5,370 nucleotides of DNA. Origin: Escherichia phage GR8. The translations under genes were made by a program, and so were the position numbers. The stretch lies in sequence record PQ551090.1; one strand, 5' to 3'. The notes beneath the pieces were generated by a model. The model was not told the origin of the DNA, did no database searches, and was given only the letters and a program-made list of their open reading frames with translations. Positions 1 through 5,370 of the stretch are shown here, one piece after another. The stretch's first letter is position 1. Each line of letters opens with the position of its first letter.

Positions 1-1175
1 TCGCTGGCGATTCCTTCGAGATGGACGCCGTTGGCGCTCTCCGTCTTTCTCCATTGCGTCGTGGCCTTGCTATTGACTCTACTGTAGATATTTTTACTTT
101 TTATGTCCCTCATCGTCATGTTTATGGTGAACAGTGGATTAAGTTTATGAAGGATGGCGTTAACGCTTCTCCTCTTCCGACCGTTAACACTACTGGTTAT
201 ATTGACCATGCTGCTTTTCTTGGCACGATTAACCCTGATACCAATAAAATTCCTAAGCATTTGTTTCAGGGTTATTTGAATATCTATAACAACTATTTTA
301 AAGCGCCGTGGATGCCTGACCGCACCGAGGCTAACCCTAATGAGCTTAATGAAGATGATGTCCGTTATGGTTTCCGTTGCTGCCATCTTAAAAACATTTG
401 GACTGCTCCGCTTCCTCCTGAGACTGAGCTTTCTCGCCAAATGACGACTTCTACTACTTCTATTGACATTATGGGTCTGCAAGCTGCTTATGCTAATTTG
501 CATACTGACCAAGAACGTGATTACTTCATGCAGCGTTACCGTGATGTTATTTCTTCATTTGGAGGTAAAACCTCTTATGACGCTGACAACCGTCCTTTAC
601 TTGTCATGCGCTCTAATTTCTGGGCATCTGGCTATGATGTTGATGGAACTGACCAAACGTCGTTAGGCCAGTTTTCTGGTCGTGTTCAACAGACCTATAA
701 ACATTCTGTGCCGCGTTTTTTTGTTCCTGAGCACGGCACTATGTTTACTCTTGTGCTTGTTCGTTTTCCGCCTACTGCGACTAAAGAGATTCAGTACCTT
801 AATGCTAAAGGTGCTTTGACTTATACCGATATTGCTGGCGACCCTGCTTTGTATGGCAACTTGCCGCCGCGTGAAATTTCCATGAAGGATGTTTTCCGTT
901 CTGGTGATTCTTCTAAGAAGTTTAAGATTGCTGAGGGTCAATGGTATCGTTATGCGCCTTCTTATGTTTCTCCTGCATATCACCTCCTTGAAGGCTTCCC
1001 ATTTATTCAGGAACCGCCTTCTGGTGATTTGCAAGAACGCGTGCTTATTCGCCATCATGACTATGACCAGTGTTTCCAGTCCGTTCAGCTGTTGCAGTGG
1101 AATAGTCAGGTTAAATTTAATGTGACCGTTTATCGCAATCTGCCGACCACTCGCGATTCAATCATGACTTCGTGA
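1..1175 (+). CDS. F: Major capsid protein F, C-terminal 390 codons (5'-truncated at window edge; reading phase begins at nt 3; continues from the 5' piece at 5278..5370 across the circular junction)
   Basis: Open frame from window edge to TAA/TGA at 1173-1175; translation (…DSFEMDAVGALRLSPLRRGLAIDSTVDIFTFYVPHRHVYGEQWIKFMKDG…RDSIMTS) recognised as phiX174-type gpF; 31 + 5 missing + 1 + 390 codons = 427 aa, the known F length. Confidence 0.95.
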   Translation, partial: AGDSFEMDAVGALRLSPLRRGLAIDSTVDIFTFYVPHRHVYGEQWIKFMKDGVNASPLPTVNTTGYIDHAAFLGTINPDTNKIPKHLFQGYLNIYNNYFKAPWMPDRTEANPNELNEDDVRYGFRCCHLKNIWTAPLPPETELSRQMTTSTTSIDIMGLQAAYANLHTDQERDYFMQRYRDVISSFGGKTSYDADNRPLLVMRSNFWASGYDVDGTDQTSLGQFSGRVQQTYKHSVPRFFVPEHGTMFTLVLVRFPPTATKEIQYLNAKGALTYTDIAGDPALYGNLPPREISMKDVFRSGDSSKKFKIAEGQWYRYAPSYVSPAYHLLEGFPFIQEPPSGDLQERVLIRHHDYDQCFQSVQLLQWNSQVKFNVTVYRNLPTTRDSIMTS

Positions 1176-1285
1176 TAAAAGATTGAGTGTGAGGTTATAA
1201 CGCCGAAGCGGTAAAAATTTTAATTTTTGCCGCTGAGGGGTTGACCAAGCGAAGCGCGGTAGGTTTTCTGCTTAGGAGTTTAATC
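1176..1285 (+). promoter_or_regulatory. F-G intergenic region with AT-rich near-perfect hairpin (about 1207-1234, agcggtaaaaatt / aatttttgccgct); corresponds to the phiX174 complementary-strand origin / PriA (n-prime) primosome assembly site, and probably the weak post-F terminator/mRNA-stabilising hairpin
   Basis: Inverted repeat read directly from sequence; position between F stop and G start matches the known location of the phiX174 n-prime recognition site (established knowledge). Exact site boundaries not determined. Confidence 0.6.
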
Positions 1286-1813
1286 ATGTTTCAGACTTTT
1301 ATTTCTCGCCATAATTCAAACTTTTTTTCTGATAAGCTGGTTGCTAGTTCTGTCACTCCAGCTTCTTTAGCACCCGTTTTACAGACACCTAAAGCTACAT
1401 CGTCAACGTTATATTTTGATAGTTTGACGGTTAATGCTGGTAATGGTGGTTTTCTTCATTGCATTCAGATGGATACATCTGTCAACGCCGCTAATCAGGT
1501 TGTTTCTGTTGGTGCTGATATTGCTTTTGATGCCGACCCTAAATTTTTTGCCTGTTTGGTTCGCTTTGAGTCTTCTTCGGTTCCGACTACCCTTCCGACT
1601 GCCTATGATGTTTATCCTTTGGATGGTCGCCATGATGGTGGTTATTATACCGTCAAGGACTGTGTGACTATTGACGTCCTTCCCCGTACGCCGGGCAATA
1701 ATGTTTATGTTGGTTTCATGGTTTGGTCTAACTTTACCGTTACTAAATGCCGCGGATTGGTTTCGCTGAATCAGGTTATTAAAGAGATTATTTGTCTCCA
1801 GCCACTTAAGTGA
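1286..1813 (+). CDS. G: Major spike protein G (175 aa)
   Basis: ATG at 1286 preceded by AGGAG (1274-1278, 7-nt spacing); stop TGA 1811-1813; translation [19 protein letters not shown]… recognised as phiX174 gpG; length matches. The six-frame track starts at an upstream in-frame TTG (1241) that lacks an RBS. Confidence 0.95.
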
Positions 1814-1821
1814 GGTGATTT

Positions 1822-2808
1822 ATGTTTGGTGCTATTGCTGGCGGTATTGCCTCTGCTCTTGCTGGCGGCGCCATGTCTAAATTGTTTGGAGGCGGTCAAA
1901 AAGCCGCCTCCGGTGGCATTCAAGGTGATGTGCTTGCTACCGATAACAATACTGTAGGCATGGGTGATGCTGGTATTAAATCTGCCATTCAAGGCTCTAA
2001 TGTTCCCAACCCTGATGAGGCCGCACCTAATTTTGTTTCTGGTGCTATGGCTAAAGCTGGTAAAGGACTTCTTGAAGGTACGTTGCAGGCTGGCACTTCT
2101 GCCGTTTCTGATAAGTTGCTTGATTTGGTTGGACTTGGTGGCAAGTCTGTCGCTGATAAAGGAAAGGATACTCGTGATTATCTTGCTGCTGCATTTCCTG
2201 AGCTTAATGCTTGGGAGCGTGCTGGTGCTGGTGCTTCCTCTGCTGGTATGGTTGACGCCGGATTTGAGAATCAAAAAGAGCTTACTAAAATGCAACTGGA
2301 CAATCAGAAAGAGGTTGCCGAGATGCAAAATGAGACTCAAAAAGAGATTGCTGGCATTCAGTCGGCGACTTCACGCCAGAATACGAAAGACCAGGTATAT
2401 GCACAAAATGAGATGCTTGCTTATCAACAGAAGGAGTCTACTGCTCGCGTTGCGTCTATTATGGAAAATACTAATCTTTCCAAGCAACAGCAGGTTTCCG
2501 AGATTATGCGCCAGATGCTTACCCAAGCTCAAACGGCTGGTCAGTATTTTACCAATGACCAAATCAAAGAACTGACACGCAAGGTTAGTGCTGAGGTTGA
2601 CTTAGTTCATCAGCAAACGCAGAATCAGCGGTATGGTTCTTCTCATATTGGCGCTACTGCAAAGGATATTTCTAATGTCGTCACTGATGCTGCTTCTGGT
2701 GTGGTTGATATTTTTCATGGTATTGATAAAGCTGTTGCCGATACTTGGAACAATTTCTGGAAAGACGGTAAAGCTGATGGTATTGGCTCTAATTTGTCTA
2801 GGAAGTAA
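1822..2808 (+). CDS. H: Minor spike / DNA pilot protein H (328 aa)
   Basis: ATG at 1822 with GAGG 1812-1815 overlapping the G stop; glycine-rich N-terminus [25 protein letters not shown]… and Q-rich central region typical of phiX174 gpH; length matches. Confidence 0.95.
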
Positions 2809-2812
2809 CCGT

Positions 2813-2846
2813 CAGGATTGACACCTTTCTAATTGTATGATTTCAT
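2813..2846 (+). promoter_or_regulatory. Putative gene A promoter (P_A) region; perfect -35 hexamer TTGACA at 2818-2823, -10 element not confidently assigned (candidates TATGAT 2836-2841, TTTCAT 2841-2846)
   Basis: TTGACA seen directly in the H-A intergenic spacer; phiX174 is known to have a promoter for A here. Spacing to the candidate -10 hexamers is non-ideal, so the exact elements are uncertain. Confidence 0.5.
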
Positions 2847-2871
2847 GCCTCCAAACTTTGGAGGCTTTTTT
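2847..2871 (+). terminator. Hairpin plus T-run (gcctccaa-act-ttggaggc followed by TTTTTT) immediately upstream of the gene A ATG; intrinsic-terminator-like structure (T_H) whose 3' arm contains the gene A Shine-Dalgarno GGAGG
   Basis: Perfect 7-8 bp inverted repeat 2847-2865 followed by six T (2866-2871), then ATG at 2872; read directly from sequence. Terminator function is inferred from structure and from the known post-H terminator of phiX174. Confidence 0.65.
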
Positions 2872-4413
2872 ATGGTTCGTTCTTATTACCCTTCTGAATG
2901 TCACGCTGATTATTTTGACTTTGAGCGTATTGAGGCTCTTAAACCTGCTATTGAGGCTTGTGGCATTTCTACTCTTTCTCAATCCCCTATGCTTGGCTTC
3001 TATAAGCAGATGGATAACCGCATCAAGCTCTTGGAAGAGATTCTGTCTTTTCGTATGCAGGGCGTTGAGTTCGATAATGGTGATATGTATGTTGACGGCC
3101 ATAAAGCTGCTTCTGATGTTCGTGACGAGTTTGTATCTGTTACTGAGAAGTTAATGGATGAATTGGCACAATGCTACAATGTGCTCCCCCAACTTGATAT
3201 TAATAACACTATAGACCACCGCCCCGAAGGGGACGAAAAATGGTTTTTAGAGAACGAGAAGACGGTTACGCAGTTTTGCCGTAAGCTGGCTGCTGAACGC
3301 CCTCTTAAGGATATTCGCGATGAGTATAATTACCTCAAAAAGAAAGGTATTAAGGATGAGTGTTCAAGATTGCTGGAGGCCTCCACTATGAAATCGCGTA
3401 GAGGCTTCACTATTCAGCGTTTGATGAATGCAATGCGCCAGGCTCATGCCGATGGTTGGTTTATCGTTTTTGACACTCTCACGTTGGCTGACGACCGATT
3501 AGAGGCGTTTTATGATAACCCCAATGCTTTGCGTGACTATTTTCGTGATATTGGTCGTATGGTTCTTGCTGCCGAGGGTCGCAAGGCTAATGACTCACAC
3601 GCTGACTGCTATCAGTATTTTTGTGTGCCTGAGTATGGTACAGCTAATGGCCGTCTTCATTTCCATGCGGTGCACTTTATGCGGACACTTCCTTCAGGTA
3701 GCGTTGACCCTAATTTTGGTCGTCGGGTACGCAATCGCCGCCAGTTAAATAGCTTGCAAAATACGTGGCCTTATGGTTACAGTATGCCCATCGCAGTTCG
3801 CTACACGCAGGACGCCTTTTCACGTTCTGGTTGGTTGTGGCCTGTTGATGCTAAAGGTGAGCCGCTTAAAGCCACCAGTTATATGGCTGTTGGTTTCTAT
3901 GTGGCTAAATATGTTAACAAAAAGTCAGATATGGACCTTGCTGCTAAAGGTCTAGGAGCTAAAGAATGGAACAACTCACTAAAAACCAAGCTGTCGCTAC
4001 TTCCCAAGAAGCTGTTCAGAATCAGAATGAGCCGCAACTTCGGGATGAAAATGCTCACAATGACAAATCTGTCCATGGAATGCTTAATCCAACTTACCAA
4101 GCTGGGTTACGACGCGACGCCGTTCAACCAGATATTGAAGCAGAACGCAAAAAGAGAGATGAGATTGAGGCTGGCAAAAGTTACTGTAGCCGACGTTTTG
4201 GCGGCGCAACCTGTGACGACAAATCTGCTCAAATTTATGCGCGCTTCGATAAAAATGATTGGCGTATCCAACCTGCAGAGTTTTATCGCTTCCATGACGC
4301 AGAAGTTAACACTTTCGGATATTTCTGATGAGTCGAAAAATTATCTTGATAAAGCAGGAATTACTACTGCTTGTTTACGAATTAAATCGAAGTGGACTGC
4401 TGGCGGAAAATGA
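2872..4413 (+). CDS. A: Replication initiation protein A (rolling-circle endonuclease/ligase, 513 aa)
   Basis: ATG at 2872 preceded by GGAGG (2860-2864); stop TGA 4411-4413; translation [31 protein letters not shown]… recognised as phiX174 gpA; contains the origin nick sequence at 3190-3219; length matches. Track ORF begins at upstream TTG 2833, which falls inside the terminator hairpin region and is not favoured. Confidence 0.95.
3190..3219 (+). other. Viral (+) strand origin of replication: conserved 30-nt gpA recognition/nick sequence CAACTTGATATTAATAACACTATAGACCAC; nick expected between G3196 and A3197
   Basis: Exact 30-mer present in the sequence inside gene A; this is the well-characterised phiX174-type origin (established knowledge). 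Confidence 0.9.
3388..4413 (+). CDS. A*: A* protein (341 aa), in-frame internal translation start within gene A
   Basis: ATG at 3388 in the A frame, preceded by GGAGG (3375-3379, 8-nt spacing); begins [10 protein letters not shown]…; matches known phiX174 A* length and start context. Confidence 0.8.
3750..3790 (+). promoter_or_regulatory. Putative gene B promoter (P_B) inside gene A; candidate -35 TTGCAA (3754-3759) and -10 TACAGT (3778-3783), 18-nt spacer
   Basis: Hexamers read from sequence; phiX174 is known to have a promoter for B within A upstream of the B start, but the exact position recalled from memory is approximate. Confidence 0.3.
3966..4328 (+). CDS. B: Internal scaffolding protein B (120 aa), encoded entirely within gene A in a different reading frame
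   Basis: ATG at 3966 preceded by AGGAG (3954-3958, 7-nt spacing); translation [120 protein letters not shown] recognised as gpB; stop TGA 4326-4328. Confidence 0.95.
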
Positions 4414-4498
4414 GAAAATTCGACCTATCCTTGCGCAGCTCGAGAAGCTCTTACTTTGCGACCTTTCGCCATCAACTAACGATTCTGTCAAAAACTGA
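4328..4498 (+). CDS. K: Protein K (56 aa), small protein overlapping the 3' end of A and the 5' part of C
   Basis: ATG at 4328 shares its A with the B stop codon (TGATG); open frame of 56 codons to TGA 4496-4498 ([56 protein letters not shown]); matches phiX174 K in position and length. Absent from the ORF track only because it is under 60 aa. Confidence 0.85.
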
Positions 4499-4670
4499 CG
4501 CGTTGGATGAGGAGAAGTGGCTTAATATGCTTGGCACGTTCGTCAAGGACTGGTTTAGATATGAGTCACATTTTGTTCACGGTAGAGATTCTCTTGTTGA
4601 CATTTTAAAAGAGCGTGGATTACTATCTGAGTCCGATGCTGTTCAACCACTAATAGGTAAAAAATCATGA
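4410..4670 (+). CDS. C: Protein C (86 aa), DNA maturation / switch from dsDNA to ssDNA synthesis
   Basis: ATG at 4410 overlaps the A stop codon (ATGA, 4410-4413); stop TGA 4668-4670; translation [86 protein letters not shown]; track ORF begins at an upstream in-frame GTG (4392). Confidence 0.9.
4597..4635 (+). promoter_or_regulatory. Gene D promoter (P_D) inside gene C: -35 TTGACA (4597-4602), -10 TACTAT (4621-4626), 18-nt spacer, predicted start about 4633-4635
   Basis: Consensus -35 and good -10 read directly; the predicted start coincides with the recalled phiX174 D-transcript start once window coordinates are converted using the F/A/D gene anchors. Confidence 0.7.
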
Positions 4671-5125
4671 GTCAAGTTACTGAACAATCCGTACGTTTCC
4701 AGACCGCGCTGGCCTCCATTAAGCTGATTCAGGCTTCTGCCGTTTTGGATTTAACCGAAGATGATTTCGATTTTCTGACGAGTAACAAGGTTTGGATCGC
4801 CACTGACCGCTCTCGTGCTCGTCGCTGCGTTGAGGCTTGCGTTTATGGTACGCTGGACTTTGTGGGATATCCTCGCTTTCCTGCTCCTGTTGAGTTTATT
4901 GCTGCCGTCATTGCTTATTATGTTCATCCCGTCAACATTCAAACGGCCTGTCTCATCATGGAAGGCGCTGAATTTACGGAAAACATTATTAATGGCGTCG
5001 AGCGTCCGGTTAAAGCCGCTGAGTTGTTCGCGTTTACCTTGCGTGTACGCGCAGGAAACACTGACGTTCTTACTGACGCAGAAGAAAATGTGCGTCAAAA
5101 ATTACGCGCAGAAGGAGTGATGTAA
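4667..5125 (+). CDS. D: External scaffolding protein D (152 aa)
   Basis: ATG at 4667 overlaps the C stop (ATGA, 4667-4670); stop TAA 5123-5125 overlaps the J start (TAATG); translation [152 protein letters not shown] recognised as gpD. Confidence 0.95.
   Translation: MSQVTEQSVRFQTALASIKLIQASAVLDLTEDDFDFLTSNKVWIATDRSRARRCVEACVYGTLDFVGYPRFPAPVEFIAAVIAYYVHPVNIQTACLIMEGAEFTENIINGVERPVKAAELFAFTLRVRAGNTDVLTDAEENVRQKLRAEGVM
4845..5120 (+). CDS. E: Lysis protein E (91 aa; single-gene lysis protein, inhibitor of host MraY), encoded within gene D in the +1 frame
   Basis: ATG at 4845 with GAGG 4832-4835 upstream; N-terminal hydrophobic segment MVRWTLWDILAFLLLLSLLLPSLLIMFIPSTF… recognised as phiX174-type E; stop at 5118-5120; track ORF starts at an upstream in-frame ATG (4815), but the known E start is the MVRW methionine. 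Confidence 0.9.
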   Translation: MVRWTLWDILAFLLLLSLLLPSLLIMFIPSTFKRPVSSWKALNLRKTLLMASSVRLKPLSCSRLPCVYAQETLTFLLTQKKMCVKNYAQKE

Positions 5126-5241
5126 TGTCTAAAGGTAAAAAACGTTCTGGCGCTCGCCCCGGTCGTCCGCAGCCGTTGCGAGGCACTAAAGGTAAGCGTA
5201 AAGGCGCTCGCCTTTGGTATGTAGGTGGTCAACAATTTTAA
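5125..5241 (+). CDS. J: Small basic DNA-binding / packaging protein J (38 aa)
   Basis: ATG at 5125 preceded by AGGAG (5113-5117, 7-nt spacing); highly basic translation MSKGKKRSGARPGRPQPLRGTKGKRKGARLWYVGGQQF; stop TAA 5239-5241. Below the 60-aa cutoff of the ORF track. Confidence 0.9.
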   Translation: MSKGKKRSGARPGRPQPLRGTKGKRKGARLWYVGGQQF

Positions 5242-5245
5242 TTGC

Positions 5246-5261
5246 AGGGGCTTCGGCCCCT
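5246..5261 (+). terminator. J-F intergenic hairpin AGGGGC-UUCG-GCCCCU (6-bp GC stem closed on a C(UUCG)G tetraloop); corresponds to the weak post-J terminator / mRNA-stabilising hairpin of phiX174
   Basis: Perfect inverted repeat with TTCG loop seen directly; no downstream T-run (followed by TACTTGAGG, where GAGG 5267-5270 is the F Shine-Dalgarno). Terminator efficiency inferred to be low. Confidence 0.6.
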
Positions 5262-5277
5262 TACTTGAGGATAAATT

Positions 5278-5370
5278 ATGTCTAATGTTCAAACTGGCGC
5301 CGAGCGTATGCCGCATGACCTTTCTCATCTTGGCTTCCTTGCTGGTCAGATTGGTCGTCTTATTACCATT
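5278..5370 (+). CDS. F: Major capsid protein F, N-terminal 31 codons (3'-truncated at window edge; continues at nt 1 after the circular junction)
   Basis: ATG at 5278 preceded by GAGG (5267-5270, 7-nt spacing); translation MSNVQTGAERMPHDLSHLGFLAGQIGRLITI matches the gpF N-terminus. Confidence 0.9.
   Translation, partial: MSNVQTGAERMPHDLSHLGFLAGQIGRLITI

Follow-up and report, generated by a model that had tools for sequence, protein, structure and literature searches.

Escherichia phage GR8 carries a phiX174-type genome distinct from the laboratory reference

The 5,370-nt sequence of Escherichia phage GR8 (PQ551090.1), referred to here as the window, i.e. the whole stretch of DNA that was analysed, has the appearance of phiX174, and the question is whether it is the laboratory phage itself or a separate member of the same group. 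The first-pass annotation had claimed, from protein motifs, that the window differs from the exact laboratory reference, and the alignment bears this out. An ungapped comparison with NC_001422 after rotation, over 5370 aligned bases, gives 113 substitutions, zero indels and 97.9% identity, and 112 differences separate the window from CP004084, a sequencing-control-type phiX174. Only 5 sites separate the two references, which represents the control-strain level of variation. The window is therefore neither identical to phiX174 nor within control-level distance of it, and falls outside the laboratory/control strain as defined by identity to NC_001422 bar a handful of known control variants.

The layout of the window follows phiX174 coordinates 1110..5386 and then 1..1093, as in a circularly permuted phiX174-type genome of 5386 nt. 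With 5370 of 5386 nt it is near-complete and linearised, short of the full genome by 16 nt of gene F (phiX174 1094-1109, F codons 32-37), which are absent at the window junction. Phages of this species have a circular, single-stranded DNA genome and a T=1 capsid. In reference coordinates the two ends of the window adjoin across the gap, which is compatible with a circular genome but is no proof of one; the shortfall probably arose when the sequence of a circular molecule was assembled or trimmed. All 11 open reading frames (A, A*, B, K, C, D, E, J, F, G and H) are intact, in the phiX174 order and with the phiX174 overlaps, at homologous coordinates and with a single terminal stop each, the window boundary being the sole interruption of gene F. 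The features are as follows:

1..1175, + strand: gene F, major capsid protein, beginning with the final two bases of codon 37 and running to its stop codon (coordinate mapping, amino-acid table)
1176..1285, + strand: F-G intergenic spacer, 110 nt, same as phiX174 throughout
1286..1813, + strand: gene G, major spike protein, 175 aa (frame and amino-acid comparison)
1822..2808, + strand: gene H, DNA pilot/minor spike protein, 328 aa (frame and amino-acid comparison)
2809..2871, + strand: H-A intergenic spacer, 6 substitutions relative to phiX174
2872..4413, + strand: gene A, replication initiator, 513 aa (frame and amino-acid comparison)
3190..3219, + strand: viral-strand synthesis origin, 30 nt, CAACTTGATATTAATAACACTATAGACCAC, identical to phiX174 4299-4328
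3388, + strand: in-frame start of A*
3966..4328, + strand: gene B, internal scaffolding protein, inside A (frame and amino-acid comparison)
4328..4498, + strand: gene K, zero differences from phiX174
4410..4670, + strand: gene C, 2 differences, both synonymous
4667..5125, + strand: gene D, external scaffolding protein, 12 differences, all synonymous in D
4845..5120, + strand: gene E, lysis protein, inside D, 5 amino-acid changes
5125..5241, + strand: gene J, DNA-binding core protein, 4 differences, all synonymous
5242..5277, + strand: J-F intergenic spacer with GC-rich hairpin, same as phiX174
5278..5370, + strand: gene F codons 1-31, resuming at window position 1 after the 16-nt gap (coordinate mapping)

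The origin and three of the four spacers (J-F, F-G and G-H) are identical in the window and in phiX174, reference and control strain alike. Changes in the H-A spacer had also been suspected, and six substitutions are indeed found there. At four of these sites the window base is carried by 18/18 wild genomes, and the other two substitutions sit in the 3-nt loop of a terminator-like hairpin (2847-2865) whose stem is kept.

Phage species are usually delimited by the ICTV at about 95% nucleotide identity or more across the genome. The window lies above this value in gapless comparisons over 5370 nt with NC_001422 (97.9%), NC51 (98.4%) and S13 (98.1%). Judged by its sequence, it is placed in the species Sinsheimervirus phiX174 (Bullavirinae, Microviridae), as a strain distinct from the laboratory reference.

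The distribution of alleles among 18 wild genomes shows where the differences from the reference lie. Of the 113 sites that differ, 33 have in phiX174 an allele that occurs in 0/18 wild genomes and is private to the laboratory reference; examples are F Ile4, His217, Leu243 (temperature-sensitive) and Val319, G Leu20 and Asn113, and H Asp137. Leu at F242 has been described as a laboratory temperature-sensitive allele (PMC2935103). Only 16 of the 113 window alleles are private to the window, and the remaining 97 match alleles in wild isolates. Phage phiX174 control DNA is a ubiquitous contaminant, and the phiX-like contigs found in collections of genomes, metagenomes and plasmids belong essentially all to the control strain, so that a control phage or an experimentally evolved derivative, differing through sequencing errors or laboratory adaptations, had to be considered. 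However, the differences exceed a hundred and mostly match wild alleles, GenBank experimental-evolution lines come no closer than 98.0%, and errors would not be 73% synonymous nor leave every overlapping frame unharmed. The alignment refutes a laboratory or control strain with added errors, and we give this whole explanation a next to negligible chance.

At the protein level, 30 amino-acid differences from phiX174 are found, 6 in A, 1 in B, 5 in E, 8 in F, 5 in G and 5 in H, with 0 in K, C, D and J. All the examples that the first-pass annotation had named are among them. In F the changes are I4V (window 5287-5289), T93S, Q154E and A157V (NQDDARYG to NEDDVRYG, 351-362), H217R, L243F, A288V and V319A, of which A157V and A288V are private to the window; the F sequence matches the PDB capsid protein F chains 9k3m, 36cr and 1al0. 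Protein G carries L20A and T21S (DKLVLTS to DKLVASS, 1343-1348), S28L, N113D (1622-1624) and the private A152V. The changes anticipated in H number five: S70N, A110V (private), D137G, I165V (private) and M251L (private nucleotide), with residues 165 and 251 lying within the solved coiled-coil tube segment 143-282. Protein A differs by H44Y, P155L (private), A180T, T275S, T402M and G435A, and B by V39M alone, which is common to 17/18 wild genomes. The changes in E are T9I (WDTLAF to WDILAF, 4869-4871), N60S, T82M, V88A and R89Q, and every substitution causing them is silent in D. The window residue is present in 18/18 wild genomes at 10 of the 30 differences and in 16-17/18 at 4 more; in about half of the amino-acid differences it is the laboratory reference that is peculiar.

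Tabulated gene by gene, the substitutions are mostly synonymous, with dN/dS of about 0.03-0.3 and zero in D, J and C. Wild phiX-like isolates have been described as being under purifying selection (PMC2935103). The first-pass annotation had stressed that many changes fall in the capsid and spike proteins, which determine host range, and an enrichment of this kind is not supported. Gene F has the most substitutions of any gene, but 31/39 are synonymous and its dN/dS relative to phiX174, 0.07, is the lowest among genes with any amino-acid change, which rules out amino-acid enrichment in F. The corresponding value for G is 0.31, and it drops to 0.06 when the comparison is made with NC51, the higher value being due to G alleles of the reference itself.

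Experiments have defined residue F154 as a host-recognition site (PMC2935103; PMC10368449). Q154E, which is the common allele in the wild (12/18 genomes), is the only capsid change at such a site; the private A157V is three residues away. It is conceivable, though unlikely, that the private changes F A157V and A288V, G A152V, and H A110V, I165V and M251L shift the lipopolysaccharide host range relative to phiX174, NC51 and S13. If so, the window would be no neutral strain but a natural variant in host range. These private changes in the capsid, spike and pilot proteins are candidates for host-range effects, and nothing so far suggests an effect.

The closest known genome is that of the wild coliphage NC51 (DQ079891), with 84 differences (98.44%), followed by S13 with 104; WA10 has 116. 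NC51 shares with the window its genome length frame, gene order, overlaps and spacers, the 84 differences being substitutions with no indels, and it is the nearest genome in gene F (19 differences, 2 amino-acid changes). In contrast, the window is nearer to S13 in gene G, where 5 nt differ from S13 and 12 from NC51, and nearer to WA10 in the D/E region. The first-pass annotation had proposed a natural or evolved phiX-like lineage resembling S13. A distinct phiX174-like lineage is what the comparison supports, but the likeness to S13 is confined to gene G, and S13 is neither the nearest relative nor near-identical. S13 (AF274751/M14428) belongs to the same species-level group (98.06% identity) and shares F Glu154 and G Ala20/Ser21 with the window, whereas 23 S13-private alleles, e.g. 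F Q81R and A102S and J S8F and P12S, are absent in the window. By neighbour-joining, a subclade of phiX174, NC51, S13 and the window has 98% bootstrap support, and the pairing of the window with S13 inside it has only 36%. Maximum chi-square tests of mosaicism give p<=0.005 for two parent pairs, a moderate significance that is uncorrected for multiple pairs.

The shift of the nearest neighbour along the genome could also mean that two or more co-occurring phiX-like strains were blended into a chimeric or consensus metagenome contig, its exact haplotype occurring in no single phage, and a contig ending 16 nt from closure is possible where strain variation breaks the assembly graph. However, in a leave-one-out analysis the window has 16 private alleles, 53 exact-match segments and 84 differences from its nearest genome, and the corresponding values are 23, 57 and 104 for S13, 19, 55 and 108 for WA10, 5, 49 and 84 for NC51, and 17, 55 and 102 for ID45. 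The statistics of the window fall within the range of comparable wild isolates, and its 53 segments match the mosaicism of plaque-purified, Sanger-sequenced ones (49-57). The overlapping frames are all intact as well, and the pattern of substitutions is that of strong purifying selection. A chimeric contig is considered quite improbable. The 16 private alleles, missing from NC51 and the other wild genomes examined and including A P155L besides the capsid, spike and pilot-protein changes discussed above, comprise 7 nonsynonymous and 9 synonymous substitutions, 15/16 being transitions; other wild genomes are alike in this respect. Window positions 361, 754, 1740, 2150, 2314 and 3335 are among the private sites.

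A different possibility is that the sequence is not natural, being either a phiX174-like genome generated by computer, for instance with a genome language model fine-tuned on Microviridae, or a laboratory recombinant of wild isolates. The PDB entries 36cr, with variant capsid and spike proteins, and 36cq, with a phiX174-type G, presumably come from the King et al. 2025 design study, and the private residues of the window are absent from their capsid and spike proteins. That study (doi 10.1101/2025.09.12.675911) reports designs that differ at 67-392 positions from their nearest natural genome (93.0-98.8% identity), NC51 and S13 being among these nearest genomes, and some of its candidates have a length of exactly 5386 nt and an identity of 97.9-98.5% to the reference. 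The window would fit the description, with its 84 differences from NC51 and its alleles, mostly natural ones in new combinations with a few novel ones added. However, the designs begin at GAGTTTTA, whereas the window begins inside gene F at phiX174 1110 and falls 16 nt short, with the look of an assembled contig. The tested private alleles occur in no candidate (0 against 178 at phiX174 1990 and 0 against 36 at 4712) in a comparison that covered 400 nt per File S1 sequence, apart from 60 rows and the 16 verified genomes. The segment and private-allele statistics are also typical of wild isolates, and a non-natural origin is regarded as highly improbable.

Searches of sequence collections returned no identical sequence and none closer than NC51. 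The H, G and A proteins of the window have no exact match in the assembly gene index, and an exact-DNA scan with private-allele k-mers found no match in IMG/VR, metagenome contigs or genome contigs. Among relatives of H in three collections, the full-length close matches are all control phiX174, at ~97.9%, and none is closer than NC51. Complete genomes of E. coli gave no match, and the six matching records of the plasmid collection are all control phiX174. The absence of an identical or closer sequence from the collections searched is a point against a natural source.

Considering the alleles shared with wild isolates and the signature of purifying selection, we propose that the window is of natural origin and, very probably, a naturally evolved strain of Sinsheimervirus phiX174 forming a fourth lineage in the phiX174/NC51/S13 subclade. 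With the same 11 overlapping genes, origin and spacers, the phage would work exactly as phiX174 does. Its 113 differences have three sources. About 30% reflect alleles specific to the laboratory reference. Most of the remainder are standing, mostly synonymous polymorphisms, arranged in a patchwork common to other wild isolates that fits within-clade recombination, the likely cause, together with purifying selection. The 16 lineage-private substitutions, with 15 transitions and 7 conservative amino-acid changes, make up the third.

The window is a new strain of a known species and biologically nothing unusual. Its biological weight is small, as it adds one further wild haplotype to a well-sampled and heavily studied species. 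For sequence analysis, reads or contigs that resemble it should not be discarded as phiX174 spike-in contamination. The Sanger reference is once more shown to be the outlier: one in three of the apparent 'variants' goes back to an allele private to the reference, and wild isolates should therefore be used to polarise differences from NC_001422 before any of them is called an adaptation.

Of 50,697 phage records searched with megablast, 161 matched over the full length at 95-99% identity, and every one is a phiX174-group microvirus. Coliphage NC51 is closest (98.4%), with S13 (98.1%) and the phiX174 records (97.9-98.0%) next. When anchored in four reference genomes, the first 40 bases of the window map at phiX174 1110 and the last 40 at 1093, and the window is thus a circularly permuted 5386-nt genome that opens within gene F and lacks 16 nt. 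The absent bases, at the window 1/5370 junction, are phiX174 1094-1109 (F codons 32-37); after rotation the alignment to the reference is gap-free, and all 11 reading frames are intact. Since control-phiX assemblies also include contigs shorter than 5386 nt (5385, 5367 and 5310 nt), the shortfall looks like a circular assembly that was not fully closed.

The first-pass annotation had proposed, from scattered substitutions, that the window is a variant or relative of phiX174 and not the exact laboratory reference. Alignment with that reference (NC_001422) bears this out, with 113 substitutions (97.90% identity), and every example it gave is correct. Identity is not at control-strain level either: the sequencing-control-type phiX174 (CP004084) differs from the window at 112 sites, and from NC_001422 at only five.

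Amino-acid replacements in the window relative to NC_001422
F: I4V, T93S, Q154E, A157V, H217R, L243F, A288V, V319A
G: L20A, T21S, S28L, N113D, A152V
H: S70N, A110V, D137G, I165V, M251L
A: H44Y, P155L, A180T, T275S, T402M, G435A
B: V39M
E: T9I, N60S, T82M, V88A, R89Q
K, C, D, J: none

The window was aligned with 16 wild phiX-like isolates (DQ079880-DQ079895), S13 and Salmonella phage PJNS001. It differs from NC51 at 84 positions, S13 at 104, phiX174 at 113, WA10 at 116 and ID45 at 131, and from the remaining genomes at 150-255. Neighbour-joining bootstrap gives 98% support to the split of the window, S13, NC51 and phiX174 from the rest, but resolution within these four is poor (window with S13, 36%; NC51 with phiX174, 68%); the window is therefore a fourth lineage of the phiX174, NC51 and S13 subclade. 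The label "S13-like" applies only loosely, as the subclade is shared but NC51 is nearer and the pairing with S13 is weak.

At 33 of the 113 sites the reference allele is missing from all 18 wild genomes, and thus the laboratory strain is the outlier there; at 27 of these 33, the window base is carried by 18/18. Just 16 window alleles are private, that is, absent from all wild genomes compared; 15 are transitions. Nine of the 16 are synonymous and seven are conservative replacements. The other ~64 differences are polymorphisms common to varying subsets of wild genomes.

Residues encoded by alleles private to one sequence
NC_001422 (examples): F I4, H217, L243, V319; G L20, N113; H D137; A A180, T402; E R89
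Window (replacements): F A157V, A288V; G A152V; H A110V, I165V, M251L; A P155L

By private-allele count NC_001422 (33, including 11 amino-acid changes) exceeds S13 (23) and the window (16). At three of the five sites separating the control-type strain from NC_001422 (833, 2731, 2811), the control-type strain has the window's allele. According to Wichman & Brown (2010, PMC2935103), every wild phiX-like phage has Phe at F242 (F243 counting the initiator Met), whereas the laboratory isolate has Leu there, probably Sanger's temperature-sensitive mutation. H residue 251 is repeatedly replaced in wild phages, since Leu arises by A>C (CTG) in the window (position 2572) and by A>T (TTG) in ID1 and WA11, and ID22 has M251I.

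The 30-nt origin and the J-F, F-G and G-H spacers are unchanged from phiX174. Six substitutions separate the H-A spacer from that of phiX174. At four of these sites 18/18 wild genomes have the window base; the other two change only the 3-nt loop of a terminator-like hairpin and leave its 8-bp stem intact. Four NC_001422-private sites lie in this spacer, in the interval bounded by the TTGACA box and the transcription start annotated at 3962.

Capsid and spike changes had been taken as a host-range signal, a reading that the substitution pattern does not favor, as replacements are not enriched there. F has the most differences of any gene (39 vs phiX174; 31 synonymous, 8 nonsynonymous), and the lowest dN/dS (Nei-Gojobori counts) of the genes with any amino-acid change: 0.07, compared with 0.10 for A, 0.13 for H and 0.31 for G, with D, J and C at 0. 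Against NC51 the values are 0.03 (F), 0.06 (G) and 0.07 (H). All five replacements in gene E (window 4845-5120, within D) come from substitutions silent in the D frame, and the D protein is unchanged; variation in E therefore appears to be carried along by silent changes in D.

Host-recognition sites reported from experimental evolution include, numbered without Met, F101, F102, F153, F336, F361, F364 and F388 (PMC2935103), and F Q154K/R (Met counted) is described as allowing phiX174 to infect heptoseless LPS mutants (PMC10368449). Among the documented sites the window differs from phiX174 only at F154, where it has the Glu found in 12/18 wild genomes. The private F A157V is three residues away, and an effect on host recognition is conjectural. 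H I165V and M251L map to residues 143-282, the segment of the coiled-coil tube whose structure is solved. The window-private residues are absent from every solved F and G chain in the PDB. Among recent capsid F and spike G structures (36cr_B/C, 36cq_B/C), 36cr has variant G (A20, S21, L28, A52, D113) and variant F (e.g. K83Q, S340A, A362V relative to the window); 36cr and 36cq may be a designed phage and its phiX174 control.

The nearest neighbor changes by region: NC51 in F (19 differences), S13 in G (5), WA10 in D/E (7) and NC5 in the A/B/K/C overlap (1). Two-breakpoint maximum chi-square tests gave p<0.005 for S13/WA10 and p=0.005 for NC51/phiX174, other parent pairs being marginal. Leave-one-out attribution divides the window into 53 exact-match segments, and NC51, S13, WA10 and ID45 into 49-57, with 16 private alleles against 5-23. 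On these counts the window looks no different from other members of a wild population that recombines. A designed or synthetic origin was weighed as well, since King et al. (2025, doi 10.1101/2025.09.12.675911) describe generated phiX-like genomes at 93.0-98.8% identity to natural ones, with NC51 and S13 among their nearest neighbors and some exactly 5386 nt. Among the truncated candidate sequences of their supplement, the window-private alleles at two sites occur in 0/178 (phiX174 1990) and 0/36 (4712). The opening within gene F, the missing 16 nt and the wild-type-like statistics favor an assembled natural contig, and we regard a designed or synthetic origin as very improbable.

No exact match, or one closer than NC51, was found in the phage, IMG/VR, metagenome, genome and plasmid collections searched. 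The assembly gene index has no record of the window's exact H, G or A protein, scans of IMG/VR, metagenome contigs and genome contigs did not find its private-allele patterns, and the E. coli genomes searched have no match. Protein H retrieved ~150 phiX-like loci, essentially all control phiX174 (~97.9%), and plasmid records hold six copies of it. Metagenome contig FUFK010037421.1 (327,964 nt) has dozens of head-to-tail phiX174 copies with match spacing in multiples of 5386 nt, probably a control-DNA concatemer or assembly artefact. Three phage records look like control-phiX contamination or mislabelling: 'Mycolicibacterium phage J1' (MZ417522.1; 24,953 nt), which starts with a complete phiX174-like stretch of 5463 nt (5386+77), and 'Protaetiibacter phage SSC1' (MT947439.1) and 'phage ST5386' (PP417747.1), 5386-nt genomes as distant from the window as phiX174.

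The first-pass observation is thus upheld and its interpretation in part. The window adds a new strain to a known species and functions like phiX174. It is otherwise of little interest, except as a reminder that many of the "differences from phiX174" originate in the laboratory reference itself.
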